37,612 nucleotides of DNA, from assembly GCA_963422205.2 (NCBI GenBank), contig CAXMWX010000004.1, positions 1 through 37,612 of the forward strand. Reading direction: 5' to 3'. Positions 16,362 through 34,123 of the stretch are shown in pieces. Made by a program: the position numbers and the translations under genes. Origin of the DNA: Gammaproteobacteria bacterium. GTDB lineage: Bacteria; Pseudomonadota; Gammaproteobacteria; Eutrophobiales; Eutrophobiaceae. The notes beneath the pieces are model-generated. The model searched no databases. It saw only the letters and a list, made by a program, of their open reading frames with translations, and was not told where the DNA came from. The first letter of the stretch is position 1; the number at the start of each line of letters is the position of its first letter.

Positions 16362-16988
16362 ATGTGGGTTATTTTACCGGTTAAAAAATTAACGACAGCG
16401 AAAAACAGGCTGGCCGACAGGCTGAATGAGCAGCAGCGCATTGAACTTAGCCGCCTGATGTGTGCCGATGTGCTTGCCACGCTGGAGGCATGTGAGTTGA
16501 TCAGCGGCATCAGCATGATCAGCAGCGATCAGACCATCATGCCGTTGGCCGCCCATGAAAAAACACAAGGTATGATCACCGAAGCAGATAAGGGCTATGG
16601 TGAGGATGTCATGGCGGCTATCGGGCGGCTGGATGCCGGGCCGTGTGGCGAGGTGTTGATTATCCCGGCGGATGTGCCGCAACTCAGCCAGGCTGATCTG
16701 CACCAGCTGCATGCCGCCCACCGGGGGGGTATCACCTTATGCCCGGCCAGCGAGGATGGTGGCACGAATGCACTTCTGTATACCGCCCCCCTGCCCGTGC
16801 CGTTGCTGTTTGGGCCGGACAGCTTTAACAGCTACTGCAAAGCGGCAGCAGAGGGCAATATCACGCTGGTCATCACAACACCACCGGGCCTGGTACGTGA
16901 TATCGACAGGTATGCTGATCTGTGCTGGCTGAGTCAACAGGCAACTGACAGGCGCTCGGTGGCATATAGCCGTGTCCTTGTGCAGTGA
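16362..16988 (+). CDS. cofC: 2-phospho-L-lactate/PEP guanylyltransferase (F420 biosynthesis)
   Basis: ILPVKKLTTAKNRLA, IIPADVP, DGGTNAL, FGPDSF, RDID. Confidence 0.9.
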   Translation: MWVILPVKKLTTAKNRLADRLNEQQRIELSRLMCADVLATLEACELISGISMISSDQTIMPLAAHEKTQGMITEADKGYGEDVMAAIGRLDAGPCGEVLIIPADVPQLSQADLHQLHAAHRGGITLCPASEDGGTNALLYTAPLPVPLLFGPDSFNSYCKAAAEGNITLVITTPPGLVRDIDRYADLCWLSQQATDRRSVAYSRVLVQ

Positions 16989-17071
16989 GATTTATACAGT
17001 GACATTTTATGCACATGATAAAAACATAAAATTGCACCGCCTGATCAATACTAAAAAGTAACAACCCACTG

Positions 17072-19156
17072 ATGCAACCAGACCTTATCCAGACCATACT
17101 CAAGGACAGCAATTATCGGCTGACGCTATTTGCTGATGATGAAATTGATGATTTACGAAAAAAAATTTTCACCAGGCCAACCCGAGGCAAAGAAACCCCT
17201 CACATCCAGTGCATTGTCAGAGACAAAGACATTCAGCTCAAGCCGGAAGAGGTAGTCCGTCAACTCTATGCGGCCAGGTTGATCCAGCAATACGGCTATC
17301 CGAAGAACAGGCTGACCTTTGAATATCCGGTCACATTTGGCCGGGAGAAAAAGAAAGCCGATGTGGTCATCTTTGATAAAGACCGGCCCGATACGCCGTA
17401 CATGATCATTGAGACCAAAAAGCCCAAACTCCAGGACGGCAAAGCACAACTGCGCTCTTACTGCAACGCCACCGGTGCGCCTGTCGGGGTATGGACGAAC
17501 GGTGGGCAAATCTCCCGCTATCACCGCAAAGACCCGAATTATTTTGAAGACATCACCGACATCCCCACAGCGACACAAAGTCTGCAAGACATTCTCAGCG
17601 AGCGCTTTACCCTGAAAGATCTCATCATCAAGGATAAAATTGCCAATGAGCGCAAATCCTTAAAAGACCTCATCCTGGAAATGGAAGATGAGGTGCTGGC
17701 CAATGCCGGCGTGGATGTGTTTGAGGAAGTCTTCAAACTGATATTCACCAAGCTCTATGATGAATTTCAAAGTCAGCAAGATAAGGGCGTGATTAATCAC
17801 TATCTACAGCAGCTTATGAATACGGTTGTGCAGGAACCGAACCCGCCGGGTTACCTTGATGGACAGGATTATGACGCGCTGAAAAAAGCAGTCAGTGGTA
17901 TCGCCGATGATGGCTTTCGGGTCATGGAATTCAGAAACACCGGGCAGACCGATAGCGAATTAAAAAGCAAGATACAGCAACTGTTCAATCAGGCAAAAGA
18001 ACACTGGCAGGGCGTGTTTGCTGAAGGTTCAGCATTTGAATTGTCCGACAGCCACCTGGCCGTCTGTGTTTCCAGCTTGCAGGATGTGAAGCTGTTTAAT
18101 TCCAACTTGCTGGTTGTCGATGAGGCGTTTGAGTATCTGGTCAGCAAATCCGCCAAAGGCGAGAAAGGGCAATACTTCACGCCGCGCCATGTGATTGATA
18201 TGTGCGTACAGATGCTCAACCCCCAGCCGGGCGAATACATGATCGATACGGCTTCGGGCAGTTGTGGTTTTCCCGTGCATACTATTTTTAAACTCACCGG
18301 CCACCTGTTCACCAACGCCGAGATTTCTGAACAAGACAAGGACGATGTGTCGAAGGTTTTCGGTATTGATTTTGATGAGAAAACCGTGCGCGTTGCCCGA
18401 ACGCTTAACCTGATTGCCGGAGATGGCGAAACCAATGTTTTGCATCTGAATACGCTGGATTTTGCGCGTTGGTCGGATAAGACCGAGAAAGATCCCAAAT
18501 GGATCAACACCTACGGCAACGGCTTTCGCCGGCTGAAAAAACTCAGAAAGCAGGCAGGGCAAAACAAGCAATTTCACTTCGATATTCTCATGGCCAACCC
18601 GCCCTTTGCCGGCGACATCAAGGAAAGCCGCCTGTTGCATCACTATGATTTGGCGCTCAACAAAAATGGCAAGGCGCAAAACAAAGTCGGCCGCGATATT
18701 CTGTTTATCGAGCGCAACCTGGATTTTTTGAAACCCGGCGGACGCATGGCGATTGTCTTGCCGCAAGGGCGATTTAATAACACCACCGATAAATACATCC
18801 GCGATTTTATTGCCGAACATGCCCGCATCCTGGCCGTGGTCGGCCTGCATGGCAACACCTTCAAGCCCCACACCGGCACCAAGACCAGCGTGTTGTTTGT
18901 GCAGAAATGGCATGACGAACACTGCCCCAGGGTGGACGACTACCCCATCTTTTTTGCCGTATCGGAGCAAGGCGGCAAGGATAATTCCGGCGACTATGTC
19001 TATGCCAAAAACGGCAACGGGGAATACACGCTGGATAAAAACGGGCATTTAATTGTTGATCACGATCTGCACAACCACGCCGGTGAACTGCCGGACGGCA
19101 TCGCCGAAGCATTTATTGAATGGGCGCAACATGAGCGCTTGAGCTTCTGGAAGTAA
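17072..19156 (+). CDS. Fused PD-(D/E)xK nuclease (HSDR_N-like) plus N6-adenine methyltransferase of a Type I-like/IIB-like R-M system
   Basis: N-terminal PEEVVRQL, ADVVIF, IIETKK; GQYFTPR, DTASGSCGF, ANPPF, GRMAIVLPQG. Confidence 0.88.
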   Translation: MQPDLIQTILKDSNYRLTLFADDEIDDLRKKIFTRPTRGKETPHIQCIVRDKDIQLKPEEVVRQLYAARLIQQYGYPKNRLTFEYPVTFGREKKKADVVIFDKDRPDTPYMIIETKKPKLQDGKAQLRSYCNATGAPVGVWTNGGQISRYHRKDPNYFEDITDIPTATQSLQDILSERFTLKDLIIKDKIANERKSLKDLILEMEDEVLANAGVDVFEEVFKLIFTKLYDEFQSQQDKGVINHYLQQLMNTVVQEPNPPGYLDGQDYDALKKAVSGIADDGFRVMEFRNTGQTDSELKSKIQQLFNQAKEHWQGVFAEGSAFELSDSHLAVCVSSLQDVKLFNSNLLVVDEAFEYLVSKSAKGEKGQYFTPRHVIDMCVQMLNPQPGEYMIDTASGSCGFPVHTIFKLTGHLFTNAEISEQDKDDVSKVFGIDFDEKTVRVARTLNLIAGDGETNVLHLNTLDFARWSDKTEKDPKWINTYGNGFRRLKKLRKQAGQNKQFHFDILMANPPFAGDIKESRLLHHYDLALNKNGKAQNKVGRDILFIERNLDFLKPGGRMAIVLPQGRFNNTTDKYIRDFIAEHARILAVVGLHGNTFKPHTGTKTSVLFVQKWHDEHCPRVDDYPIFFAVSEQGGKDNSGDYVYAKNGNGEYTLDKNGHLIVDHDLHNHAGELPDGIAEAFIEWAQHERLSFWK

Positions 19157-19160
19157 CGGC

Positions 19161-20174
19161 ATGGAACAGCAGAATATCATCATCTACAAAACCGCAGACG
19201 GCCAGGCATCGGTTGCGCTTTACGCTGAGGATCATAACGTCTGGCTCACCCAAAAACAGCTTGCCGAACTTTTTGCCACCTCCCGCCCCAACATCACCAC
19301 ACACATAGCTAACATACTGAAAGAAAAAGAATTATCAGAAAATTCAGTATGTAAAGATTTCTTACATACTGCCCCTGACGGCAAAGCGTATCAGGTGAGG
19401 CATTACTCGCTCCCCATGATCCTGGCCGTGGGCTTTCGGGTCGGCGGCGCACGTGGCACACAGTTTCGGCAATGGGCAAACCGTCATCTGCACAGCTACA
19501 TGGTCAAGGGCTTTATTCTGGATGATGAACGCCTGAAAAACCCCGATGGCCACCCCGATTATTTTGATGAAGTGCTGGCGCGCATTCGCGATATTCGGGC
19601 CAGCGAAAAACGCTTTTATCAAAAGGTGCGCGATTTATTTGCCCTGTCCAGCGACTACGACACCAGCGATAAATCGACCCAGATGTTTTTTGCCGAGGTG
19701 CAAAACAAACTGATTTATGCCGTCACCGGACAAACCGCCGCCGAACTCATTGTGCAAAGAGCCCGTGCCGACAAGGCCAACATGGGGCTGACCACATGGC
19801 AAGGGGCAATCGTTCGCAAGCAGGATATTTATACGGCCAAAAATTATCTTGATGAAGATGAGCTTGATACCCTCAATCGTCTGGTGGTGATTTTTTTGGA
19901 AACGGCTGAACTACGCGCCAAAAACCGCATGGATACCACCATGGATTTCTGGCGTGAAAACGCCGACAGCATGATCGAAAGCAATGATTTTGGGCTGTTG
20001 CAAAATGCCGGTTCCATCCGCCGTGAACAAATGGAAAAAACCGCCCTGGCTGAATATGAAAAATTTGATCAAAAGCGAAAAGCCTGCGATGCCCGGCAAG
20101 CGGACAAGCAGGATGATGAAGAACTGAGGCAGCTTGAAGCAACGATTAAAAACCGCATGCCTGGCGAGAAATAA
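19161..20174 (+). CDS. RhuM-family virulence/DNA-binding protein
   Basis: WLTQKQLAELF, YSLPMILAVGFRV, GTQFRQWA, KGFILDDERLKNP, RIRDIRASEKRFYQKV, AKNYL. Confidence 0.9.
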   Translation: MEQQNIIIYKTADGQASVALYAEDHNVWLTQKQLAELFATSRPNITTHIANILKEKELSENSVCKDFLHTAPDGKAYQVRHYSLPMILAVGFRVGGARGTQFRQWANRHLHSYMVKGFILDDERLKNPDGHPDYFDEVLARIRDIRASEKRFYQKVRDLFALSSDYDTSDKSTQMFFAEVQNKLIYAVTGQTAAELIVQRARADKANMGLTTWQGAIVRKQDIYTAKNYLDEDELDTLNRLVVIFLETAELRAKNRMDTTMDFWRENADSMIESNDFGLLQNAGSIRREQMEKTALAEYEKFDQKRKACDARQADKQDDEELRQLEATIKNRMPGEK

Positions 20175-20224
20175 ATAATGTGCAATGTGAGTGAAAAATT
20201 GTTGCTTTGGGTGGAGAGGTAGGG

Positions 20225-21622
20225 ATGCAAGTTTCAACGATAATGTTTCAAAAATTGAATCATGAATTCAGAATTGACGCTGAATACTATAGGAGGGAAG
20301 TTTTAAATCGAATCAGTGCATTAGATCGTCATCACAAAGACAAACTTGAAAACTTAGCAGATTTTATTATTGGCCCCTTTGGTTCAACTGTAAAAGCTAA
20401 CCAATATGTAGGAAATTCAGAATATAGCTATGTAAGAAATAAAGATATAAATGATTTTGTGATAAATGATACTGAACCCACCTTAATACCAAGCAAAGTT
20501 TATCATTCGTTACCGAAATACCATATTAAAGAAAATGACTTGCTAATTACTGTTGTAGGTACTTTAGGAAAAGTGGCTATTGCGACTGAAAAAGATGTTA
20601 AATCAATATTCAGCTGTAAAAGCACAATCATTAGAGTTGAAAATATAAATCCATTTTATTTGCTTACATATCTGAATACCGATACGGGAAAACTCTTTTC
20701 TCTCAGAGGGAAAAGAGGGGCAATACAAGAGGGGTTGAACTTAACTGATTTAAAGGAAGTTCAGGTCTTCATTCCATCATTTGAGTTTCAATCGGAGATT
20801 GAAAGAATAATAAAGTGCTCGTTTTCAGTGACGGAACTTTCAGCAATCAAATACAAAGAAGCCCAAACCCTCCTCCTCGCCGAACTTGGCCTGACCGACT
20901 GGCGACCAAAACACCGGCTTTTCTTTATAAAAAACTACGCCCAAATCAAAACCGCAGAACGTATCGATGCCGAATACTTCCAGCCGAAATATGACGACAT
21001 TATCCATGCCATACAAAACTATTCCGGGGGATGGGATAGGCTAGGGAATTTAGTCACAATCAAAAAATGTATGGAAGTTGGTAGTAGTGAATATCAGGCG
21101 GAGGGTATTCCATTTGTTCGGGTGAGTAACCTAAGTCCTTTTGAGATAACTCAGGAAAAATATATTTCTGAAAAGCTATATCAACAGATAAAGCAACATC
21201 AGCCCCAAAAGGGAGAAATATTACTCAGCAAGGATGCAACACCAGGGACAGCCTATTATTTAAGCGAAGCACCGCAACCGATGATTCCATCAAGTGGCAT
21301 ACTCCGACTAAAAACAAAATCAAATTTCATCAAAGATGAATACCTGGCATTGGTTCTAAATTCGCCTTTAACCAAAGAACAAGTCAATCGTGATGTGGGT
21401 GGTTCTGTCATTCTGCATTGGAGACCTGAGCAGGTGCAAGCAACAATGATCCCTATTTTGCACGAAACAAAACAAACCCAAATCCAGCAAAAGATCAGGC
21501 AGTCTTTTCACTTACGCAAGCAATCAAACCACCTGCTGGAATGCGCCAAGCGGGCGGTGGAAATCGCCATTGAACAGGACGAGCAAACCGCCACCAACTG
21601 GCTGGAAAATGCAACCAATTAA
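20225..21622 (+). CDS. hsdS: R-M specificity subunit (HsdS-like, two target recognition domains)
   Basis: RIDAEY occurs twice; GPFGS, ENDLLITVVGTLGKVA, GEILLSKDATPG; two AT-rich TRDs separated by a GC-richer helical spacer. Confidence 0.88.
   Translation: MQVSTIMFQKLNHEFRIDAEYYRREVLNRISALDRHHKDKLENLADFIIGPFGSTVKANQYVGNSEYSYVRNKDINDFVINDTEPTLIPSKVYHSLPKYHIKENDLLITVVGTLGKVAIATEKDVKSIFSCKSTIIRVENINPFYLLTYLNTDTGKLFSLRGKRGAIQEGLNLTDLKEVQVFIPSFEFQSEIERIIKCSFSVTELSAIKYKEAQTLLLAELGLTDWRPKHRLFFIKNYAQIKTAERIDAEYFQPKYDDIIHAIQNYSGGWDRLGNLVTIKKCMEVGSSEYQAEGIPFVRVSNLSPFEITQEKYISEKLYQQIKQHQPQKGEILLSKDATPGTAYYLSEAPQPMIPSSGILRLKTKSNFIKDEYLALVLNSPLTKEQVNRDVGGSVILHWRPEQVQATMIPILHETKQTQIQQKIRQSFHLRKQSNHLLECAKRAVEIAIEQDEQTATNWLENATN
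21463..21609 (+). repeat. 147-bp direct repeat, copy 1 (hsdS conserved 3' end)
   Basis: Aligns without gaps to 22809-22955; 9 mismatches by eye, first 55 bp identical. Confidence 0.95.
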
Positions 21623-21628
21623 ATGCAA

Positions 21629-21715
21629 ATATAACAAGGCAATGCACTCGGACAAAATAAAGCTGCGTTCGTTCCTCACTATGCTTTATCTTGCCGTTGA
21701 GCTTGGTCGTTGTGT
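21629..21715 (+). mobile_element. Integron attC-like recombination site (somewhat degenerate)
   Basis: Starts ATATAAC-AAGGCAATGCACTCGGAC, ends GCCGTTGAGCTTGGTC-GTTGTGT; inner inverted repeat ATAAAGC...GCTTTAT; begins 7 bp after the hsdS stop and ends 18 bp before the next ATG. Confidence 0.7.
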
Positions 21716-21732
21716 ATCTAGGGAACTAATTA

Positions 21733-22452
21733 ATGCCAGAGTCTGAAAAGTCATTAGTTGAACTGCTAAAGGAAAACCACAACACTAAAGCTATTGAGCA
21801 CATTCTAAACGTGCTCAAAGCTGGTCTTTCTAGTGCTCCTTTTATGGGAGGTATTGCGTCTCTGATTGAGGACTACATACCCACATCAAAAAAGAAGCGG
21901 CTGGAAGAGTTTACTATGCGTGTAGCAGAGGATCTTACTAAGCTACAATCTCAAGTTCAAGAAAGCACTCTACACACTGACGATTTTGCTCATGTTTTTA
22001 AAGAATGTTTTAGAGGTGCGGCTGAAAACTACCAACAAGAGAAACTGGATTCTTTCAGAGGTATTCTCATTAACTCTGCAATTGGGGTTCAGGTTGAAGA
22101 GGGCGAGAAAGACTATTACATGACTTTGGTAAGCTCGCTTTCAGTGCTGCACCTTCAAATACTCAGATTCATGGTCAATCCAATCGATTACCTCAATGCC
22201 AATGGGATCGATCCAGCAAGTATTAGAGGGGGGTTTGGACAGTTTTTCCCTGTAGCAATTCCAAATGTGAGTATTGACGCAATCAAGTCTGCTTTTGGTG
22301 ATTTGTATGCATCAGGCATGATCAATACCGATAATTCTATCTTTGTAACAATGACTGCTGGCCAGGGTATCGAACTCCTGGGGCGAGATGGCAACAGGGT
22401 CTCATCATTTGGCAAGAGATTTATTCAATTCTGTACATCGCCGAACCAATGA
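21733..22452 (+). CDS. Hypothetical low-GC protein, gene-cassette-like; possibly Abi-alpha-like (helical N-terminus plus winged helix)
   Basis: Intact 239-aa ORF with AGGGA RBS directly after the attC-like site; family resemblance is tentative. Confidence 0.6.
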   Translation: MPESEKSLVELLKENHNTKAIEHILNVLKAGLSSAPFMGGIASLIEDYIPTSKKKRLEEFTMRVAEDLTKLQSQVQESTLHTDDFAHVFKECFRGAAENYQQEKLDSFRGILINSAIGVQVEEGEKDYYMTLVSSLSVLHLQILRFMVNPIDYLNANGIDPASIRGGFGQFFPVAIPNVSIDAIKSAFGDLYASGMINTDNSIFVTMTAGQGIELLGRDGNRVSSFGKRFIQFCTSPNQ

Positions 22453-22473
22453 AAAAAACAAGCGGCTCATGGC

Positions 22474-23004
22474 ATGAGACGTCGCAATGGTGAAATTACG
22501 AGTTGTATGTTACAAGAGGGAAAATATTTGCCGACACGGGCGAGGCGCCTGGTTTCAGCAGGTGATGTTATTGTCTCTTCGATTGAAGGTTCTTTGTCAA
22601 GCATTGCGCTGATTGAAAAAGAATATGATCAAGCCCTTTGTTCTACTGGCTTTCATGTGATTAGATCAGAAAACTTCAATCCAGAAACACTGCTTGTCTT
22701 GTTGAAAAGCAAAGTCGGGCAGTTGCAACTCAAAAAAGGATGTAGCGGCACTATTCTTACCACAATCAATAAAGATGAATTTGGCAAGCTGGTGCTGCCG
22801 AAAATAGCCGAAACAAAACAAACCCAAATCCAGCAAAAGATCAGGCAGTCTTTTCACTTACGCCAGCAATCAAAACACCTGTTGAAATGCGCCAAGCGGG
22901 TGGTGGAAATCGCCATCGAACAGGATGAGCAGACCGCCATCAACTGGCTGGAAAACAAAGTAAATGCGATGCAATCCCAGCAGGCACAGCTGCATAAACG
23001 GTAA
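22474..23004 (+). pseudogene. 5'-truncated hsdS half: an alternative second TRD plus the conserved C-terminal helix
   Basis: LPTRARR, AGDVIVSS, CSTGFHVI, GTILTTI are TRD-like; C-terminus nearly identical to the upstream HsdS; lacks TRD1, the spacer and the start of the TRD. Confidence 0.82.
22809..22955 (+). repeat. 147-bp direct repeat, copy 2
   Basis: Matches 21463-21609. Confidence 0.95.
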
Positions 23005-23084
23005 AGTATGAGTTTACTGGCGATAACAATTTACGACAGCTTACGGTCTTTACGAACTTCCCAGGTCAGGTGCAGCATTGATCT

Positions 23085-26000
23085 TTATCGGGTTTTAACA
23101 CGCACCCCGGCGGGTTGTTGCTGACGTGTGAACATCGCCATCGGCGAGTTATGCGAATCACGTATGATGATCCCGTGTTCATAGAGCGCATTCTGTAGCG
23201 CAGCGGCGATGGCGTGCAAGGGCGCACCGCCTCCTTCGCCCATGCCCTTGGCGCCGTTAAAGGTAAACGGCGATGGGGATTGCATGTTGGCACATTTGAG
23301 CGTTGGCATGTTGTTGATCGTCACCGGTGCATAGTCGGTAAACGAGCCTGAAATCACATTACCATCCTCATCAAACGGCATGGTCTCCACCATCGCCGCC
23401 CCAATCCCGTGACAGGCCGCCCCATGCACCTGGCCCTCGACAATCATGGGGTTAATGACCTTGCCGCAATCATCCACGATCGCATAATCCAGCACCTTGT
23501 ACTGACACGTGGCCGGCTTTAGCTCAATCACAGCAATATGCAGTTGCAAGGCATAGGTCAGCGTCAGATTTCCGGTCTTCGTCTTAACATCGGGCACCTC
23601 AAACGGCGGCATGTAGATGTGCCGTACATTCAAGGTAATATCACGCAACGCTTGCGGCAGGCTGGCGCTGTTGGCATTCACCAGGTTTGCTACCATCCAG
23701 AAGTTCATCCTGCGCTCGGTGCCCTTGACGCTCACCTCTGGCCCCATCTCACCCATGCCGTATGTGAGTTCATCCTCCTCCGCCTTCAGCGCAAAGCAGG
23801 CCAGCCGGCTGATTTCGTCTTTTAGCTTTTTTGCCGCCCCGTGTGCCGCCGATAAACCGGTGACGGCAAACTGGCTGGCATAGGTACCGGATTGCCCGGT
23901 ATGGCTGTTGCTCAATGAGTCAAAACCGGTACGCACGGTAACGGCATCCGGGTCAATGCCCAGTGTCTCGGCCACCACCTGGGCTGCCGTGGTCTCATGG
24001 CCCTGGCCCTGTGGAAACGTCCCCAGGCTGACGATCACCTGCCCATCCAGATCGAGCTTGGCTGTGGCCCCCGTGGAGTTACCGGAGAAGGGCGCCTCCG
24101 GGTTCACATAGCGCGCCTGTCCCCAGTTATTGGTGCCAGAATCCAGCGTGGTGCCGATGCCGATGCCAATTCGCCGAGCATCGCCGTCATCCCTGGCCGC
24201 CGCCTGGCGCTCATGCCAGGAATCCCAGCCAATCAGCGCCTTGGCCTTGTCCAGCATGGCAGGCAGATCGCCCGAATCATACACGCAGCCGTTGGGCGTG
24301 GTGTAGGGAAACTGAGGGATATAGTTTCGCCGGCGCATCTCATCGGCCGCAATGCCTAACTCATAGCCGCAAATATCCACGACTCGTTCCATGAACCAGA
24401 TATGCGGCAGACGTGAATAACCGCGGTTGGGTGCTGCCGGGCCTTTGTTGGTGGTGACCTGGGTAAACTCGATTCGGATATGGCGTAACTTATACGCAGC
24501 CGGCAGCACCTGCGACCAGATAGCACAGCCCAGCGGCTCATAACGCGGATACGCCCCCACATCATCCACATGCCGTGAGCAGAGGGCGGTGATCGTGCCG
24601 TCTTTATCCAGCGCCACCTTGGTATCATAATAGCTGCGCTCGCTGCCATGCCCGCCCGCCATCATGTGTTCACTGCGCGTTTCCACCCACTTGACCGGCG
24701 CACCGCCCGCCTTGCGCGAGGCCACCGCCGCCAGAGCGATGTAAGGATAGTTACAGATTTTATTGCCGAAACTGCCGCCAATATCATAGGTACGCAGGCG
24801 GATCTGATCCATGTTCACGCGCAAGGCCGGGGCGAGGAAGACCAGCGGTACAGTCATGATGGTGTTGGCAAACAGATCGATCTCATCACGCGGCCCCCAG
24901 ATGGCGACGATGGCATTGGTCTCCAGTGCCGTGCTGCCGAAACGATGAAAATACAGGCGATCGATCGTGACCACATGGGCGGCCTGCTCAAAGGCCGTGT
25001 CCACATCGCCGTAGTCAAACACATCGCTGAAGGTGATGTTGGTGCCAGCCCCCCCATGCAGGATGACCGCATCCTGCTCTGCCTGTTCACAACAGATAAC
25101 CGGTGGCAGGACGTCGTACACCACATTGACCAACTGCACACCATCCGCCGCTATCGCTGGCGTTTCAGCGATCACCGCCACGATCGGATCGCCCTGATAG
25201 ACCGCTTTGTCCACCGCCAGCGGGTAGTCCTTGATGCCTTGCGGTGCACCGGCGCCGATCTGAATGAAGGGGTCGCATTGCTCGGCGATCTCTTTGCCGG
25301 TCAAGGTACAGACCACACCGGGCAGTGCCTCCGCTTTGGAGAGATCAATAGCGGCGATCCTGGCATGGGCATAGGGTGAGCGCACCAGGGCCAGGTGTAA
25401 CAGGCCGGCCGGCTGATAATCATCCACAAAAAACCCCTTGCCCGTAAGCAGACGTTTATCTTCCTTGCGCTTCAGTTTTTGTGCAGTACGTCCGCTGTTC
25501 AACACCCTGGCCATACGCTGCTGTTTTTCCCGGCCGAGGCGCTCCCGGTGCGGTGCGGGTGTCGCCAGTGCTGTCGGCCAGTCTGGCGCCATCTGCTGGC
25601 CCTCATCACCGGCATCGCCAAGGATGCGTGACAGCCAGCCGCCCCCTTTGCCAGCAGGCCGGGCGTTTGCGGCATCGGCTGACATGGCCTGTTGCAGGCA
25701 ACCGATCAGTTTTTTGATCTCTCTCTCGGCATAGCCTTTCATGCCGCCACCGGCCAGCGATAATATCCGCCCCACCAGCTCGGCCTCGCCCTGCCACAGC
25801 ACCTGTGTGCCTTTGTCGGTCTCGGTCAATGTGAATGCGGCGCTTAATTCATACGCCCCCTGCATGAGCTTGCCCCGGCCAGTGTAACGGGCATGCGCCG
25901 GTGCTTTTGCCTCCACCAGGCATAACTCGGTTGAGGCCGTGCTGCTGATTCTGCCGATGCCGACTTTTACCCGCACCAGGGCGGTGCGATCATCCTGCAT

Positions 26001-26117
26001 CTCCAGGCTGTGGAAGGTGGGCAGCAGCGGGGCGAAGCGGGCCGGATTGGCCAGCAGATCATAGACGGCCTGCCGGTGTTGATCGACAGTGAATTCGCCG
26101 GAGAATATGAGCTTCAT
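23085..26117 (-). CDS. Xanthine dehydrogenase-family molybdopterin large subunit with N-terminal CoxG/SRPBCC domain
   Basis: N-terminal ~145 aa CoxG-like, then [57 protein letters not shown]; ATG 26117 overlaps the small-subunit stop (ATGA). Confidence 0.9.
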
Positions 26118-26611
26118 GATCCCCCCTCCCGTAGTTGTCTGGCCGCCGCCTGCACAGACTTGATGATATTCTGATAACCGGTACAACGGCAGAGGTTACC
26201 CGCCAGGGCGGTGCGAATGTCCTTCTCCTCAGGGGCCGGATTCTCGGCCAGCAGTGCCAGCGAGGACATTAACATGCCGGGTGTGCAATAACCGCATTGC
26301 AGCCCGTGATGTTCAGAAAACGCCTGTTGCAGTGGATGCAACTCATCTCCCCCGGCCAGCCCTTCGACAGTGATGATCTCAAACCCATCGGCCTGCACCG
26401 CAAACAGGGTACAAGACTTGATGGCCTCGCCATTCATGATCAGGGTACAGGCGCCACAAAAACTGGTATCACAGCCAATATGGGTACCGGTCAATTTGAG
26501 TTCCTCACGGATAAACTCAACCAGCAACAGGCGCGGCTCGATTTCCCGCTGATAGGTCGTGCCGTTTACGCCGATGCGGATGCGTACTTTGTCGCCTTTC
26601 GTCTCAGACAT
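26114..26611 (-). CDS. Molybdenum hydroxylase small (2Fe-2S) subunit
   Basis: [28 protein letters not shown]. Confidence 0.95.
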
Positions 26612-29819: not shown

Positions 29820-30596
29820 ATGGATGAAATGGCCTATGAAAATCTGGATTTGAAAAAACCGATAGAATCGGAAGACTATGAAGAATGCTCAGATTTCATG
29901 ACAATTTCTATTGAAGGCATGATGCAAGATGCTATGGACAACAGAAGGAACAAGATCGTAATTAATACGAATCTTAAATATGGCATCCCAATGGAAAATA
30001 TAAATAAAATTGCCGGGCCTTTTATTGAGGCATGGGTATATGAAGTATTTACAGAATGTCTCGAAGATGAGAATAATAAATATCAATTAATAAATGTTGA
30101 GGCTGGTGAACGTCTGAATATGGCGGACGTAATTTTACAGTTCAAGAAAACCAGAAAGAGAAATTCCAGCGTTACTGGTTATGTTGACGTTAAGGCGACT
30201 TCAAAGGATATTGAGAATAGTGGGAAGTCTCCAAATATTACTTCATTCGCTCGTATCCGCTCGGCCTATGTTACCGATCCGGATTATATATTTATCATCT
30301 TGTCGATTAAACATAAGGTATTTAGCGCCAAGGATAGTGCAACTGAAATGATGATGGGGGTTATGGAAGTAGTGGATTTTAATGCTTACGATCTAAAATA
30401 CTTATCTGATTTCGATCTTAGCTACAATCCTGCATTGGGAACTGGACAAATTCAAGTACGCGATATTCACTATGTTTCAGTAAAAAAGAGGAGTGCTTGG
30501 GAGTTTTGCAAATTACTTGACAAAAAGTTTATTGCATCAAAAAAAGGTTATGATCAGTGGGTTGAATATGCAGAACAAAATGGGTGGATTAAGTAG
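29820..30596 (+). CDS. Probable Type II restriction endonuclease (PD-(D/E)xK)
   Basis: Low GC; MADVILQF...YVDVKAT catalytic-like motif; abuts a DNA methyltransferase. Confidence 0.72.
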   Translation: MDEMAYENLDLKKPIESEDYEECSDFMTISIEGMMQDAMDNRRNKIVINTNLKYGIPMENINKIAGPFIEAWVYEVFTECLEDENNKYQLINVEAGERLNMADVILQFKKTRKRNSSVTGYVDVKATSKDIENSGKSPNITSFARIRSAYVTDPDYIFIILSIKHKVFSAKDSATEMMMGVMEVVDFNAYDLKYLSDFDLSYNPALGTGQIQVRDIHYVSVKKRSAWEFCKLLDKKFIASKKGYDQWVEYAEQNGWIK

Positions 30597-31523
30597 ATGA
30601 AGAAAATCGACCTGCGATGTGGTGATGCACTGAAATTATTCAAAGGAATAGAGAGTGAATCAATTGATGTGATCATAGCGGATCCTCCATATAATCTGGG
30701 AAAAGACTATGGGAACAATCATGATTCAAAAGCGTTTGAAGATTATTTGAAGTTCACCAGAAAATGGCTTTCTGAAGCCAAAAGAGTTTTAAAACCTACT
30801 GGTACTGTATACGTGTTTATGGGCGTCAGGTTTATATCATATCTATATGACATTTTAGATAAAGAACTAGAAATGTTTTTTAATAGTTGGATAGTATGGC
30901 ACTACACGCAGGGACTAGGTAAAACAAAAGGATTTTCACCCAGACACGATGATATTTTAATGTTTACGAAATCAGATAAGTTTATATTTAATTTAGATGA
31001 TATTCGTGTTCCTCAGAAATATTATCGCGCAAGGAACAATATGCGTGGCGCAAATCCTGGTGATGTCTGGAAATTTTCTCATGTTCATTATTGTAATTCC
31101 AACAGGCAGAATCACCCTACTCAAAAACCGGAAGGTCTGATAGAAAGAATGGTATTAGCATCCAGTAATGAAAGTGGGTTGGTTCTTGATCCCTTCTCTG
31201 GAAGTGGAACAACTTTAAGGGTATGCCAACAAGTCAAACGAATGGCTATAGGGTTTGAACTGAACCCCGATTATACAGAAATGACTAATGCGCGTCTTTC
31301 GGAGAGTTTTATTGGATTTGATAGTATTGATTCAAGAATGGAGAGGGTGCCAAACGACTTGCGAAAACCTGATATCAGAGATGAATATCTGGAAAATCAT
31401 GTTAAATGGTTCTTGCACAATCATGAAAATGCTTTGGAAGTATTCCGAAAAGCTGTTAAGGAAAAATACGGTATTGATGTTGGTATTACTTCAATGAGTT
31501 CCAGGCAGATAGAGATGTTATAG
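30597..31523 (+). CDS. Beta-class N4-C/N6-A DNA methyltransferase
   Basis: ADPPYN (motif IV) precedes HPTQKPE and LDPFSGSGTT (motif I). Confidence 0.93.
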   Translation: MKKIDLRCGDALKLFKGIESESIDVIIADPPYNLGKDYGNNHDSKAFEDYLKFTRKWLSEAKRVLKPTGTVYVFMGVRFISYLYDILDKELEMFFNSWIVWHYTQGLGKTKGFSPRHDDILMFTKSDKFIFNLDDIRVPQKYYRARNNMRGANPGDVWKFSHVHYCNSNRQNHPTQKPEGLIERMVLASSNESGLVLDPFSGSGTTLRVCQQVKRMAIGFELNPDYTEMTNARLSESFIGFDSIDSRMERVPNDLRKPDIRDEYLENHVKWFLHNHENALEVFRKAVKEKYGIDVGITSMSSRQIEML

Positions 31524-31574
31524 CTTATGTTTAAATGGGTTGGTTTTTTGAAACGCAGATAAACTTGCATATAG

Positions 31575-31879
31575 GTGGAAATCGAATCCTTAATTTGTCA
31601 GGTGAAAGAATATGATCGAGCGGTACGTGATCATATCAATACACACCGTTATCAAGTTGATCTTCTTAAAAACTCATCAAACTGGAGTCAAATATTCGTT
31701 TCCATTGATACGATAGAGGACACGTTATATGCAATCGATTCATATCTTGCATCTGACTTTCCCAATGTTTCTGGTCTTCAGTACATATATACGTATGGTT
31801 TACTGCAATCTCTTTTCTTGCAGCAGGATGGTATTCGCCATTTAAGTGAGGCATTTGGTGTAACTCATGAGGTATCGCA
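31575..31879 (+). pseudogene. 3'-truncated hypothetical low-GC gene that reads out of frame into the duplicated FAH 3' end (stop at 31973)
   Basis: AT-rich coding-like sequence to 31879; the tail ARLAWQRAWMCRSGWQ is the alternative-frame translation of the repeat. Confidence 0.65.
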
Positions 31880-31991
31880 AGCCCGCCTGGCGTGGCAGCG
31901 GGCATGGATGTGCCGAAGTGGTTGGCAGTCGGCGACAGGATCGATGCGACTATTGAGCAGCTGGGTACGCTGACCACGTATATTGTTTAGG
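31880..31991 (+). repeat. 112-bp direct repeat, copy 2
   Basis: Matches 29661-29772. Confidence 0.97.
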
Positions 31992-32170
31992 GGATGTTCT
32001 CTGGTCGCATGATTGGGCGGTGAATGGTGTGATGCCATCGCTTGCCTTTTTCTAGGGAGAGTGCGAGCAGGCTCGGTTTTAATTATGCGAGTGCCAGGCG
32101 GGCTGCCATTGAAAATGCGCTTGAAATCGGTCAGTATCTGACCCTTGGCTACTAGCCTTATGGTGAAAAC

Positions 32171-34123
32171 ATGCTCGATATGAAAATTTCAACGATTCTT
32201 GACCACATTGATAGCGGACATATCGCTCTCCCTGAATTTCAGCGGGGCTATGTCTGGAATCGTAATCAGGTGCGCGGTCTATTTGACTCACTCTATCGTC
32301 GGCACCCGGTTGGCGGGCTTCTTATCTGGGCAACGGAGTCGAAGGGGGCGATTCACCGTGGTTATGGTAAACTCGCCGCTGGCATCGTTAAGCTTTTGCT
32401 TGATGGCCAGCAGCGCATGACTTCGCTTTACGGCGTCCTACGGGGCAGGCCGCCGAAGTTTTTTGATGGCAATGCAGAGACTTTTACGGGCTTGCGCTTT
32501 CATCTTGAACGCGAAGAGTTCTCCTTCTACCAGCCGCTCAAGATGAAGGACGATCCACTTTGGATCGATGTCACCGAGCTGATGAAGAGAGGGACGGAAG
32601 GTCTCGGTGGTAATGTTTCGGCTTTGACGGCCAATCCGGAACTCGCGCCCAGGATTGGCGACTATTTCGGCAGACTTAGCAAACTGCTCGGGATCAGAGA
32701 CATCGGTCTTCACATTGAAGAAGTGACTGGCGCTGACAAAACTATCGATACCGTTGTTGATATTTTTAACCGTGTCAATAGCAGTGGCACTACACTCAAG
32801 CAGGGTGATTTGGCGCTGGCGAAGATCTGCTCGGATTGGCCGCAAGCGCGCAACGAGATGAAGGCCAGGCTGCAAGAATGGAATAATGCGGGTTATCATT
32901 TCGATCTGAACTGGCTACTTCGATCCGTAAACGCCGTTCTGACCGGCGAAGCTGATTTTCGGTTCCTGCATGACAAAAACGCTGATGAGATTCAGGACGG
33001 TCTCACGCGTACAAGCAAGCATATTGACGATTGCATCAACATGATTGCTGGCAGGCTTGGTTTAGATCATGGTCAAGTGCTGTTTGGTCATTTCTCCATC
33101 CCAGTTATGGCCCGGTATCTTGACCAGCATAGTGGGGCGATGGATCAGCAGGAGCGCGACAAGATCCTCTTCTGGTTCGTGCAAGCTGGCATGTGGGGTC
33201 GCTTCTCCGGGTCGAGTGCAACCACCCTTGATCAGGACCTTGCTGCTCTCGAAGGTGAGAGAGGCGGGCTGGATGCGCTTTTAGAGCAGTTGCGGCTTTG
33301 GCATGGGGCGCTTCGCGTTGAGCCCGGTCACTTTACTGGCTGGAGTCTCGGCGCGCGTTTCTATCCGGTGCTGTACCTCCTGACCCGTATGGGTGAGGCG
33401 AGGGACTGGGGTACGGGTCTCCCGCTGAAGGCAGATCTGCTCGGAAGGAATAGTCGACTGGAAGTGCATCATATATTCCCCAAGGCGCAACTCTACAGGC
33501 GCGACTTCAAGAAACAGCAAGTCAATGCGCTGGCAAACTACTGCTTTTTGACCAAGAATACAAATCTTTACATACGTGATCGTTTGCCGGAAGAGTACTT
33601 CCCCGAAGTGGAAGAAACCCATCCTGGCGCACTTGTCTCGCAGTGGGTACCGAGTGATCCGATGCTTTGGAAGGTTGAAAACTTTCTGGATTTTCTTGAA
33701 GCGCGCAAGGTACTTTTGGCTGAGGAGATGAACGCGTGCATGGCCGAGCTGCTCCACGGTGAAACCCGCTGGCTTGAAGGTACACCAGCCTCGGTGCCGG
33801 CCGCCGTATCGATGGTAGGTGGCATCGCAAGTGAAGAGGAAGAGGAACAACTCAGAGCGCTCAACCACTGGGTTGAGGATAGGGGGCTACCGCACGGCGC
33901 GCTTTCCTATGATTTTTCCGATCCCGATACCGGTCAGCAGCGTGCCGTCTTTGATGTGGCTTGGCCCTATGGAGTCCAAGAGGGACTTACGGAGCCGGTG
34001 GCCGTACTTATCAATGAGAGCGAAGAGGCGCTCGCCATCGCCAGCCAGGCCGGTTTCAGGTGCTTTGCTTCTGCCGATAGTTTCAAGCGTTACATAGAAA
34101 CAGAGATTCTGACTCAGGAATAG
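32171..34123 (+). CDS. DUF262 (ParB/Srx-like) plus HNH-like protein, GmrSD/Type IV restriction-related
   Basis: LPEFQRGYVW, LLDGQQRMTSL, IFNRVNSSG; EVHHIFPK...NALANYCFL...N; extra C-terminal domain. Confidence 0.82.
   Translation: MLDMKISTILDHIDSGHIALPEFQRGYVWNRNQVRGLFDSLYRRHPVGGLLIWATESKGAIHRGYGKLAAGIVKLLLDGQQRMTSLYGVLRGRPPKFFDGNAETFTGLRFHLEREEFSFYQPLKMKDDPLWIDVTELMKRGTEGLGGNVSALTANPELAPRIGDYFGRLSKLLGIRDIGLHIEEVTGADKTIDTVVDIFNRVNSSGTTLKQGDLALAKICSDWPQARNEMKARLQEWNNAGYHFDLNWLLRSVNAVLTGEADFRFLHDKNADEIQDGLTRTSKHIDDCINMIAGRLGLDHGQVLFGHFSIPVMARYLDQHSGAMDQQERDKILFWFVQAGMWGRFSGSSATTLDQDLAALEGERGGLDALLEQLRLWHGALRVEPGHFTGWSLGARFYPVLYLLTRMGEARDWGTGLPLKADLLGRNSRLEVHHIFPKAQLYRRDFKKQQVNALANYCFLTKNTNLYIRDRLPEEYFPEVEETHPGALVSQWVPSDPMLWKVENFLDFLEARKVLLAEEMNACMAELLHGETRWLEGTPASVPAAVSMVGGIASEEEEEQLRALNHWVEDRGLPHGALSYDFSDPDTGQQRAVFDVAWPYGVQEGLTEPVAVLINESEEALAIASQAGFRCFASADSFKRYIETEILTQE

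Follow-up and report, generated by a model that had tools for sequence, protein, structure and literature searches.

The attC sites of integron gene cassettes carry two core boxes, R'' (RYYYAAC) and R' (GTTRRRY), placed in inverted orientation at their two ends. They are imperfect palindromes whose central spacer is unpaired and whose extrahelical bases lie on one arm, with more conservation of structure than of sequence; each cassette has one, arrays next to an intI gene keep them in one orientation, and IntI recombines their folded bottom strand. Phase-variable loci of hsdS, the gene for the specificity (S) subunit of restriction-modification (R-M) systems, combine inverted repeats with a dedicated recombinase, as in Mycoplasma pulmonis and the pneumococcal SpnD39III locus. 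Darracq et al. (10.1101/2024.07.02.601686) found that sedentary chromosomal integrons carry anti-phage defence cassettes, mostly small type II and IV systems with no long loci among them, and that the DUF2806 domain of the Belisama system is detectably homologous to Abi-alpha. Loot et al. described the insertion of cassettes into genomes at GWT triplets. We analyzed a locus that touches on all of these systems, located at positions 20,225 to 23,004 of a 37,612-nt stretch of gammaproteobacterial DNA (family Eutrophobiaceae; assembly GCA_963422205.2, contig CAXMWX010000004.1, positions 1 to 37,612 of the forward strand; hereafter the window, to which all coordinates refer). At this locus, a full S gene is followed by an attC-like palindrome, an open reading frame (ORF) of 239 codons designated as ORF239, and a 5'-truncated S gene (half-S) that has a different second target recognition domain (TRD) and a repeat of the S gene tail. 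The original prediction had listed all of these elements, and each of them was recovered at the place assigned to it. We regard it as probable that the stretch 21627-23004 is a decayed piece of a cassette array attached to a BsaXI-like island of methylase, RhuM and S genes, that the fusion was not the work of an integrase, and that half-S is inert. The elements concerned are as follows.

20225..21622, + strand: full S gene with TRD1, central region, TRD2a and tail (Pfam Methylase_S; PADLOC Specificity_I)
21463..21609, + strand: tail repeat copy a; its 55-bp block at 21463-21517 recurs without a difference in copy b
21627..21717, + strand: attC site (core 21629-21715, R' box 21709-21715), located with the family covariance models
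21733..22452, + strand: cassette ORF (ORF239), 239 aa, with a conserved 5' leader from 21716
22453..22485, + strand: truncated attC of ORF239, 33 nt, with an R''-like box right after the stop codon and then the start of the stem, cut at 22485
22486..23004, + strand: 5'-truncated second S gene (3' part of TRD2b and tail copy b), within an ORF from the ATG at 22474 (22474-23004, 176 aa)
22809..22955, + strand: tail repeat copy b, located by alignment with copy a
23023..23029, + strand: R''-like heptamer, 19 nt past the half-S stop codon, possibly a remnant of a third attC, which is unproven

The palindrome at 21629-21715 begins 6 nt past the stop codon of the full S gene. Its R'' (21629-21635) and R' (21709-21715) boxes each fit six of the seven consensus positions, with the AAC and GTT triplets present. 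The 101-nt query around it (21625-21725) found DNA matches of 74-95% identity in 42 genomes of many families among 400 genomes sampled across the class, with at most two candidates scored per genome. We aligned 30 attC copies (77-92% identity) over 95 columns and used this alignment for both the structure test and the covariance model. The 30 copies had in common an inverted AAC...GTT core and a short spacer that stays unpaired. Their long stem is interrupted, and its three bulges, of one base each, are confined to the 5' arm. Over 28 pairs, 86.6% of the cells were paired, as compared with 35-51% when the partners were slid. Compensatory changes were found in half of the pairs (14 of 28), and the 79 compensatory cells stood against 31.9 +/- 4.2 in shuffled alignments, none of 500 of which reached the observed number. 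The family model including the window copy (R1) scored the window attC at 83.3 bits on the + strand and 17 bits on the - strand. The leave-one-out model built without the window copy (R2) placed it at 21627-21717 with 77.5 bits on the + strand (E = 1.7e-19) and 17.2 bits on the - strand. With the filters off, R2 gave no other match at E <= 1 in the window, and no second attC scored.

The covariance model also detected arrays of same-strand attC sites spaced by 0.5-2 kb, with 30 sites in genome G358, 10 in G298 and 7 in G175. An integron integrase gene (intI) scoring over the TIGR02249 cut-off was present in four of the five genomes searched. In G175, the array at 1305975-1315165 (-) adjoins intI at 1317056-1318006 (+); in G298, the array at 769582-777626 (-) adjoins intI at 781920-782858 (+); and a single attC match lies beside an intI gene both on contig 2 of G298 and in G112. 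The attC matches were on the strand opposite to the adjoining intI (G175, G298 and G112). As this geometry is canonical, the orientation of the model is that of the cassette top strand. Clusters of attC matches with no intI were found in G358 and G386. When S genes (PF01420) were sought in the attC arrays of five genomes, none of the ten matches lay inside an array. Based on the homologous copies, the covariation, the arrays beside intI and the leave-one-out score, we regard the palindrome, termed attC-like in the original prediction, as a genuine attC site. Relative to the family, the window copy has several broken stem pairs (about 8 pairs are non-standard), as expected of a site no longer under selection. 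Its best BLAST match (86% over 93 nt) was found in G033, and this sister attC (L018, 3203-5176, contig 36) follows a gene for a 657-aa Schlafen-group-3 helicase, another defence-type cassette.

Could the palindrome be a chance hairpin or a terminator, and the whole arrangement an assembly chimera? Folded as a single sequence, the palindrome is no more stable than shuffled versions of itself (z of -0.66 to -1.39, with 20-50 of 200 shuffles folding equally well). An Rfam scan of 20000-23300 returned three sub-threshold chance matches, none of them at the palindrome, and the 55-bp repeat does break contigs built from k-mers. The attC homology, covariation, arrays and leave-one-out score described above contradict this explanation. 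In addition, Logan contigs of two runs of one study matched 16500-23600 with no differences and broke only at the 55-bp repeat. In both runs, the three unique contigs were of equal depth, and the unitig of the repeat was approximately 1.4-1.8 times as deep. The contigs of the two runs agree with the assembled order, which speaks against the strain-chimeric assembly that had been named as a possible refutation. Altogether, we hold a chance or chimeric origin to be extremely improbable.

ORF239 downstream of the attC is intact and of full length relative to 25 relatives. Of 513 candidates, 224 proved to be relatives at E <= 0.001. A scan of the genome contigs with the single ORF239 protein gave 202 pattern matches, none of which was confirmed, and the scan was repeated with an alignment. 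The closest metagenomic copy, L075, is 83.7% identical over 736 nt, and the similarity spans exactly 21717-22452, beginning just behind the R' box and ending with the stop codon. L075 has a different attC upstream and its own attC downstream. Matches to the attC model directly flank the ORF239 relatives in L075-L077 and L067, on contigs with arrays of 4-7 matches. Among 16 genome loci read by eye, a core-bounded palindrome past the stop codon was clear in six (two of which are near-identical), plausible in three and lacking in five, and the remaining two were cut by the contig end. The relatives of ORF239 occur in very different phyla, commonly between attC sites. The same ORF and leader thus stand behind different upstream attC sites, with the homology ending at the cassette boundaries, which marks a mobile cassette. 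Judged from these sequences, ORF239 is a complete and widely travelled integron gene cassette.

For the ORF239 protein, no match to Pfam or NCBIfam was found, and a profile search gave no sequence match in the Protein Data Bank (PDB). Weak matches to Abi_alpha (PF14337) were detected in 15 of 26 ORF239 relatives (best E of 4.8e-4); none reached the gathering score, and the window ORF239 had no match at E <= 1. Its AlphaFold2 (AF2) model is all-helical with a mean predicted local distance difference test (pLDDT) score of 75, and a fold search with this model against the PDB returned no match at E <= 0.001.

On the left side of the attC, the junction with the S gene bears on how the two came together. 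The full S gene (ORF 20207-21622) encodes 465 aa when read from the family-type start MQVST at 20225. It has many full-length relatives at 69-76% identity, of which 21 (69-75%) were aligned together with a fragment in G007 (73%). An ending in EMQI followed by a stop codon is common in this family, being found in 27 parseable C-termini and in G175 and G022. In this native ending, the last codon, the stop codon and one further base form the heptamer that serves as the R'' of the attC. The same ending occurs in G022 without any attC, and the heptamer is thus native to the S gene. In the window, a GAA-to-TAA change ends the live S gene four codons ahead of the usual stop (window 21605-21631). G036 has this premature stop in common with the window, and both run on into a homologous attC; G175 keeps the GAA and has a more decayed attC copy. 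As the junction is common to the window, G036 and, in decayed form, G175, the unit of S gene end and attC has been inherited and moved between families of the class. We also considered the heptamer at the S stop codon as a bottom-strand GTT target of integrase-mediated insertion, and rejected this candidate on the top-strand orientation of the attC (83 bits on the + strand against 17).

The two other genomes with this junction differ in what surrounds it. In G036 (L022, 3793-4817), an unrelated gene is followed by a 117-nt fragment of an S tail, a short and decayed attC and an AbiJ_NTD4 gene, and the neighbourhood is free of restriction genes. In G175 (L097, contig 11, 1486000-1499000), we found, in this order and all on one strand, an attC, a methylase gene, an S gene, a decayed attC, a GmrSD_C fragment, an attC, EcoRV-type restriction and methylase genes, an attC, a glyoxalase-family gene and an attC. 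This cluster adjoins metH and is far from the integrase of G175. The C-terminal 143 residues of the G175 methylase are 85% identical to the window methylase. The G175 cluster holds a methylase-S module between attC sites, and with its GmrSD-type fragment it also provides a further case of a gene remnant truncated at the 5' end within an attC cluster. The idea that the S gene had travelled with an attC is thus backed by the S-stop/attC junction in G036 and G175 and by the methylase-S pair between attC sites in G175.

On the right side, the attC of the ORF239 relatives starts directly after the stop codon. The window keeps 33 nt similar to the beginning of the L075 attC, with an R''-like box and a short motif at the same spacing, and this remnant of a second attC implies that the locus was once a cluster of at least two attC sites. 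Half-S begins at the next base: from the asparagine codon at 22486 on, its product is 71% identical (aa) to that of the TRD2b-type S gene in G340, and the homology at the DNA level starts there as well. The joint at 22485/22486 therefore lies 33 nt into an attC on one side and inside TRD2b on the other. Since it is located neither at the G/TT of an R' box nor at a GWT triplet, we regard it as an illegitimate joint and not as an integrase product. Reading 22453-22511 as one complete short attC that ends at a G/TT inside half-S was rejected, as the homology to the G340 S gene already begins at 22486.

Half-S has lost approximately 37 codons of TRD2b and everything upstream, the central conserved region included. 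Its homology to the S family (163 codons are left) ends at 22974, where the stop codon and R'' heptamer would be expected, and its last 10 codons are read-through that resembles none of the 149 distinct C-terminal endings of the family. The R''-like heptamer at 23023..23029 is one of five matches in the window on both strands, as compared with 3.5 expected, and coincides with no model match. Of the 147 positions over which the two tails (21463-21609 and 22809-22955) align, 138 match (93.9%); no difference falls in the first 55 bp, and all nine lie in the remaining 92 nt, in agreement with the earlier estimate of about 94% and a perfect first 55 bp. A general repeat search reported the tails as direct repeats of 166 nt at 89% with a period of 1346 bp. 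The 55-bp identical block encodes a motif that was seen in none of approximately 235 relatives. As the block is both identical and private to the locus, an exchange between the tails by homologous recombination is indicated: the block is a conversion or crossover tract, and the tails have recombined with each other. We examined the protein tails as a guide to which of the two is resident, and this was uninformative, the differences being private to each copy.

With the repeats in direct orientation and no upstream homology in half-S, further exchange can only delete 1346 bp and would retain the TRD1-TRD2a gene. We therefore take the specificity to be set by TRD1-TRD2a and half-S to be a dead, inert remnant, as far as the sequence tells. 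A working phase-variable locus or shufflon that alternates TRD2a and TRD2b has in its favour that two different TRD2 copies share a conserved tail with a recombination tract in it. Against this stand the direct rather than inverted repeats, the silent copy lacking the central conserved region and 37 TRD codons, and the absence of a recombinase in the window ORFs scanned and of intI in the genome. Furthermore, the contigs of the two runs contained no alternative joints, with the limit that such contigs drop rare variants and cannot bridge the 55-bp repeat. We consider a working switch very improbable.

The original prediction stated that the window holds no recombinase, and none was found among the 29 large ORFs scanned out of the 42 window ORFs of at least 160 aa. 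In the own genome, no integron integrase exceeded the TIGR02249 cut-off (best score of 80.6 bits against a cut-off of 265), so that no complete integron, with intI and attI beside cassettes, was recovered. Four Xer-like matches were found on contigs 3 and 7. The whole genome gave one attC match (150 of 1133 candidates scored). The locus is thus a single attC with an adjacent coding sequence, no other attC and no integrase nearby, which corresponds to a single attC site lacking an integron integrase (SALIN). As in described SALINs, the attC and its cassette lie outside any integron in a genome with no intI found, and the locus is decayed and probably immobile.

Several observations weigh against the interpretation of the region as a decayed array piece. 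The genome is 98% complete in 14 contigs, and an integrase may be held in a gap. The attC covariance model covers the single subfamily from which it was built and does not see other attC sites. The 33-nt remnant of the second attC was recognized by eye against the attC of the 84%-identical L075 and of other relatives, and the covariance model gives it no score. The heptamer at 23023..23029 may be a remnant of a third attC, which would then amount to a heptamer only. The covariance models detected no attC or remnant upstream of the methylase in the window, and the idea that the methylase-RhuM-S module is itself a cassette is consequently drawn from G175 only. Among 16 other loci with S relatives, the attC model matched only in G175, weakly in a short locus (E of 0.086), with two weak matches in all. 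Finally, three histories fit the locus, which differ in the TRD2 that was first at the site.

The specific history that we would put forward runs as follows. The island would have arrived as, or grown into, an array consisting of a methylase-RhuM-S module with its attC, ORF239 with its attC, and a second methylase-S module. One illegitimate deletion, with one end inside the second attC and the other within the second S gene, would then have produced the joint at 22485/22486, and a later homologous exchange between the two tails would have left the private 55-bp tract. Such a two-module array with a single internal deletion is plausible, and we propose it with rather less than even confidence. 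Two alternative histories, each with homology on one side only, may together explain the locus with a chance slightly short of even.

In the first of these alternatives, which comes closest to the original prediction, a resident gene with TRD1, TRD2b and tail was recombined with incoming TRD2a-tail-attC-ORF239-attC DNA. The left crossover would lie in or upstream of the central region, the right end would be an illegitimate joint inside TRD2b, and the specificity would have changed. Such a replacement yields the structure from a single event. It would also explain the lack of an attC behind tail b, which is what a resident gene that was no cassette should show, and the incoming unit of tail a and attC is of a type known from G036 and G175. 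Alleles bear on it in both directions. We classed 235 fetched S relatives, assigning a part when the identity was 55% or more over 60% or more of its length; the lists had been seeded with both TRDs, so that the proportions are biased. There were 74 relatives with TRD1-TRD2a, 11 with TRD1-TRD2b, 111 with another first TRD and TRD2b, 32 with another first TRD and TRD2a, and 7 with TRD1 and another second TRD. TRD2b is equally common among S relatives, and the TRDs have plainly been reassorted within the S family, judging from these classes. TRD1-TRD2b genes do exist (11 of 235; for example P0221, with 74% identity in TRD1 and 82% in TRD2b), as the earlier proposal to look for them had anticipated. 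On the other hand, the TRD1-TRD2a combination is the commoner one in these biased lists (74 of 235), and the relatives of both combinations all stand at approximately 60-80% identity, so that no close relative carries the presumed ancestor. The replacement further demands an extra conversion event for the private 55-bp tract, and none of its steps is integrase-mediated. G007 (L053, 5135-7527) possesses a methylase-RhuM-S island that has decayed into several short ORFs and contains TRD2a (73% aa) but no attC, which speaks against TRD2a being the newcomer and leans slightly toward TRD2a being at home in such islands. In the same G007 island, a weak IS200-like (Y1_Tnp) match lies between the RhuM and S fragments. 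Altogether, we view the replacement as possible and rather unlikely. The claim that TRD2a came in, displaced TRD2b and changed the specificity is accordingly not upheld, and either direction may apply, with both combinations among the relatives and with TRD2a lacking an attC in G007. Nor did an integron-assisted swap of specificity find support, as the right joint is no integrase crossover, no intI exceeds the cut-off, and half-S lacks the central region for a homologous swap-in.

In the second alternative, the resident gene had TRD1, TRD2a and tail b, and a 1346-bp circle of TRD2b-tail-attC-ORF239-attC, closed illegitimately, entered by a single crossover in the tail. This Campbell-type integration would have duplicated the tail and left the specificity unchanged. 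The period of the repeats equals the length of such an insert (1346 bp), and the 55-bp tract lies where a crossover with heteroduplex repair would leave one. An attC of the G036/G175 type directly adjoins the 3' part of tail a, and the G007 island, with TRD2a and no attC, agrees with the presumed resident state. However, the small circle would have to arise from an odd pair of breakpoints, neither of which is at a GWT or G/TT. The 55-bp motif being private, donor and recipient must both have had it, or repair must have equalized them. We regard this integration as unlikely. In every version, including the array with an internal deletion that we put forward, the fusion at 22485/22486 was not made by the integron integrase and half-S is dead.

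The remaining parts of the island and its flanks are as follows.

16362-16988: cofC, left flank of the island
17072..19156, + strand: gene for a methyltransferase subunit of 694 aa with an N-terminal HSDR_N_2 nuclease-like domain (Pfam N6_Mtase 3.9e-32, HSDR_N_2 4.5e-28; PADLOC MTase_I PDLC03034 1.6e-295)
19161..20174, + strand: RhuM-family gene between the methylase and S genes (Pfam Virulence_RhuM 2.5e-106; PADLOC PDC-S05 2.2e-143)
23085-26186, - strand: xanthine-dehydrogenase-type gene, convergent, right flank of the island

The GC content of the island is low, about 0.31-0.55 as compared with about 0.6 in the flanks. In G020, which belongs to another genus of the same family, cofC and the dehydrogenase gene are approximately 140 nt apart and form an empty site. 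In G001, which belongs to the same genus as the source of the window, the two genes are separated by approximately 0.9 kb of unrelated DNA. The empty site in G020 and the different content in G001 together indicate that the whole island (about 17000-23000) is an insertion. Delimiting the ends of the island by alignment to the empty G020 site was attempted and was uninformative. The dehydrogenase gene at 23085-26186 (-) encodes a molybdopterin dehydrogenase large subunit with an N-terminal fused CoxG/SRPBCC-type domain. The window also contains a second defence-looking patch at 29820-34123, composed of a 258-aa ORF with no Pfam match, an N6_N4 DNA methylase gene (30597-31523) and a gene for a 650-aa GmrSD_N protein (32171-34123), and no attC model match was found near it.

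The Pfam scan detected no HsdR in the island, which consequently lacks the HsdR that accompanies hsdM and hsdS in a classical type I R-M system; two hsdR genes sit elsewhere in the genome, on contig 3. The related loci in G175 and G340 are likewise devoid of HsdR. The methylase combines the HSDR_N_2 and N6_Mtase domains in this order and is accompanied by a separate S subunit. Its closest solved relative is RM.BsaXI (8w0p_A, E of 2e-20), aligned at residues 448-617, the methylase core, only, and for the S protein a sequence search gave no solved relative. The proteins of the module are labelled as type I or MADS-like by PADLOC and NCBIfam models, with scores below the cut-offs of these models. 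With no HsdR here or in G175 and G340, and RM.BsaXI as the closest solved relative, the module looks more like a helicase-free enzyme of a combined restriction-methylase (RM) subunit and an S subunit, similar to BsaXI or BcgI, than like a classical type I system. As in the type IIB enzymes (BsaXI, PDB 8w0p; BcgI), the methylase carries an N-terminal nuclease-like domain, the two-TRD S subunit is separate, and there is no HsdR in the locus. In contrast to BsaXI, the alignment covers the methylase core only, and two-sided cleavage would be a prediction. In G340 (L098, 302-7697), a DUF4145 gene separates the related methylase gene from the TRD2b-type S gene, in the slot held by RhuM in the window, and a 1037-aa Schlafen AlbA_2 protein follows the methylase and S genes instead of HsdR.

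We finally compare the locus with the described systems. Phase-variable hsdS loci and the window have alternative TRDs with common conserved flanks in common. Unlike those loci, the window has direct repeats, an incomplete silent copy and no recombinase found, and does not qualify as a shufflon. The genome insertions described by Loot et al. also differ from the locus. Here an attC precedes a complete cassette whose own attC is truncated, which makes the locus look like a broken piece of an array and not like one attC x attG insertion at a GWT triplet. In restriction and Abi-like functions, the locus resembles the integron defence cassettes (10.1101/2024.07.02.601686), with the ORF239 family giving weak Abi_alpha matches and an activity of ORF239 being a prediction. 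In contrast to that description, a BsaXI-type methylase-S module of 3.5-4.6 kb is attached to attC sites here and in G175. A dead S tail, left by ordinary recombination, lies behind a live S gene, and both RhuM and the defence-type ORF239 are inside the locus. The locus fits the category of single attC sites or of clusters of attC sites lacking an integron integrase (SALIN/CALIN) as well as that of integron defence cassettes. By its structure, it appears to be a relic of past cassette movement rather than a functioning switch of specificity.

In the literature on integrons, attC and hsdS, as judged from titles and abstracts, no S genes in cassettes were found, with the limit that the supplementary tables of the preprints may list some. 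The hsdS treated in PMC12409362 belongs to the type I system of Vibrio pathogenicity island 2 (VPI-2). Within these sources, a BsaXI-type methylase-S module attached to an attC, with the S stop codon inside R'', was not found described. We tentatively suggest that BsaXI-type modules circulate as cassettes with the S stop codon in R'', and that multi-module arrays act as banks of specificities reshuffled through the S tails, of which the window would show a collapsed one with a recent conversion tract between its two S tails, and rate this as doubtful at present.

The locus, in which the attC and a defence-type cassette are intact and two neighbours are broken, offers a natural example of cassette DNA that ended up and decayed outside integrons, in a genome where no integrase was found. 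A helicase-free methylase-S restriction module is tied to attC sites in two genomes. If it is true that S genes travel with attC sites, integrons would be a further route for the spread of restriction specificity.

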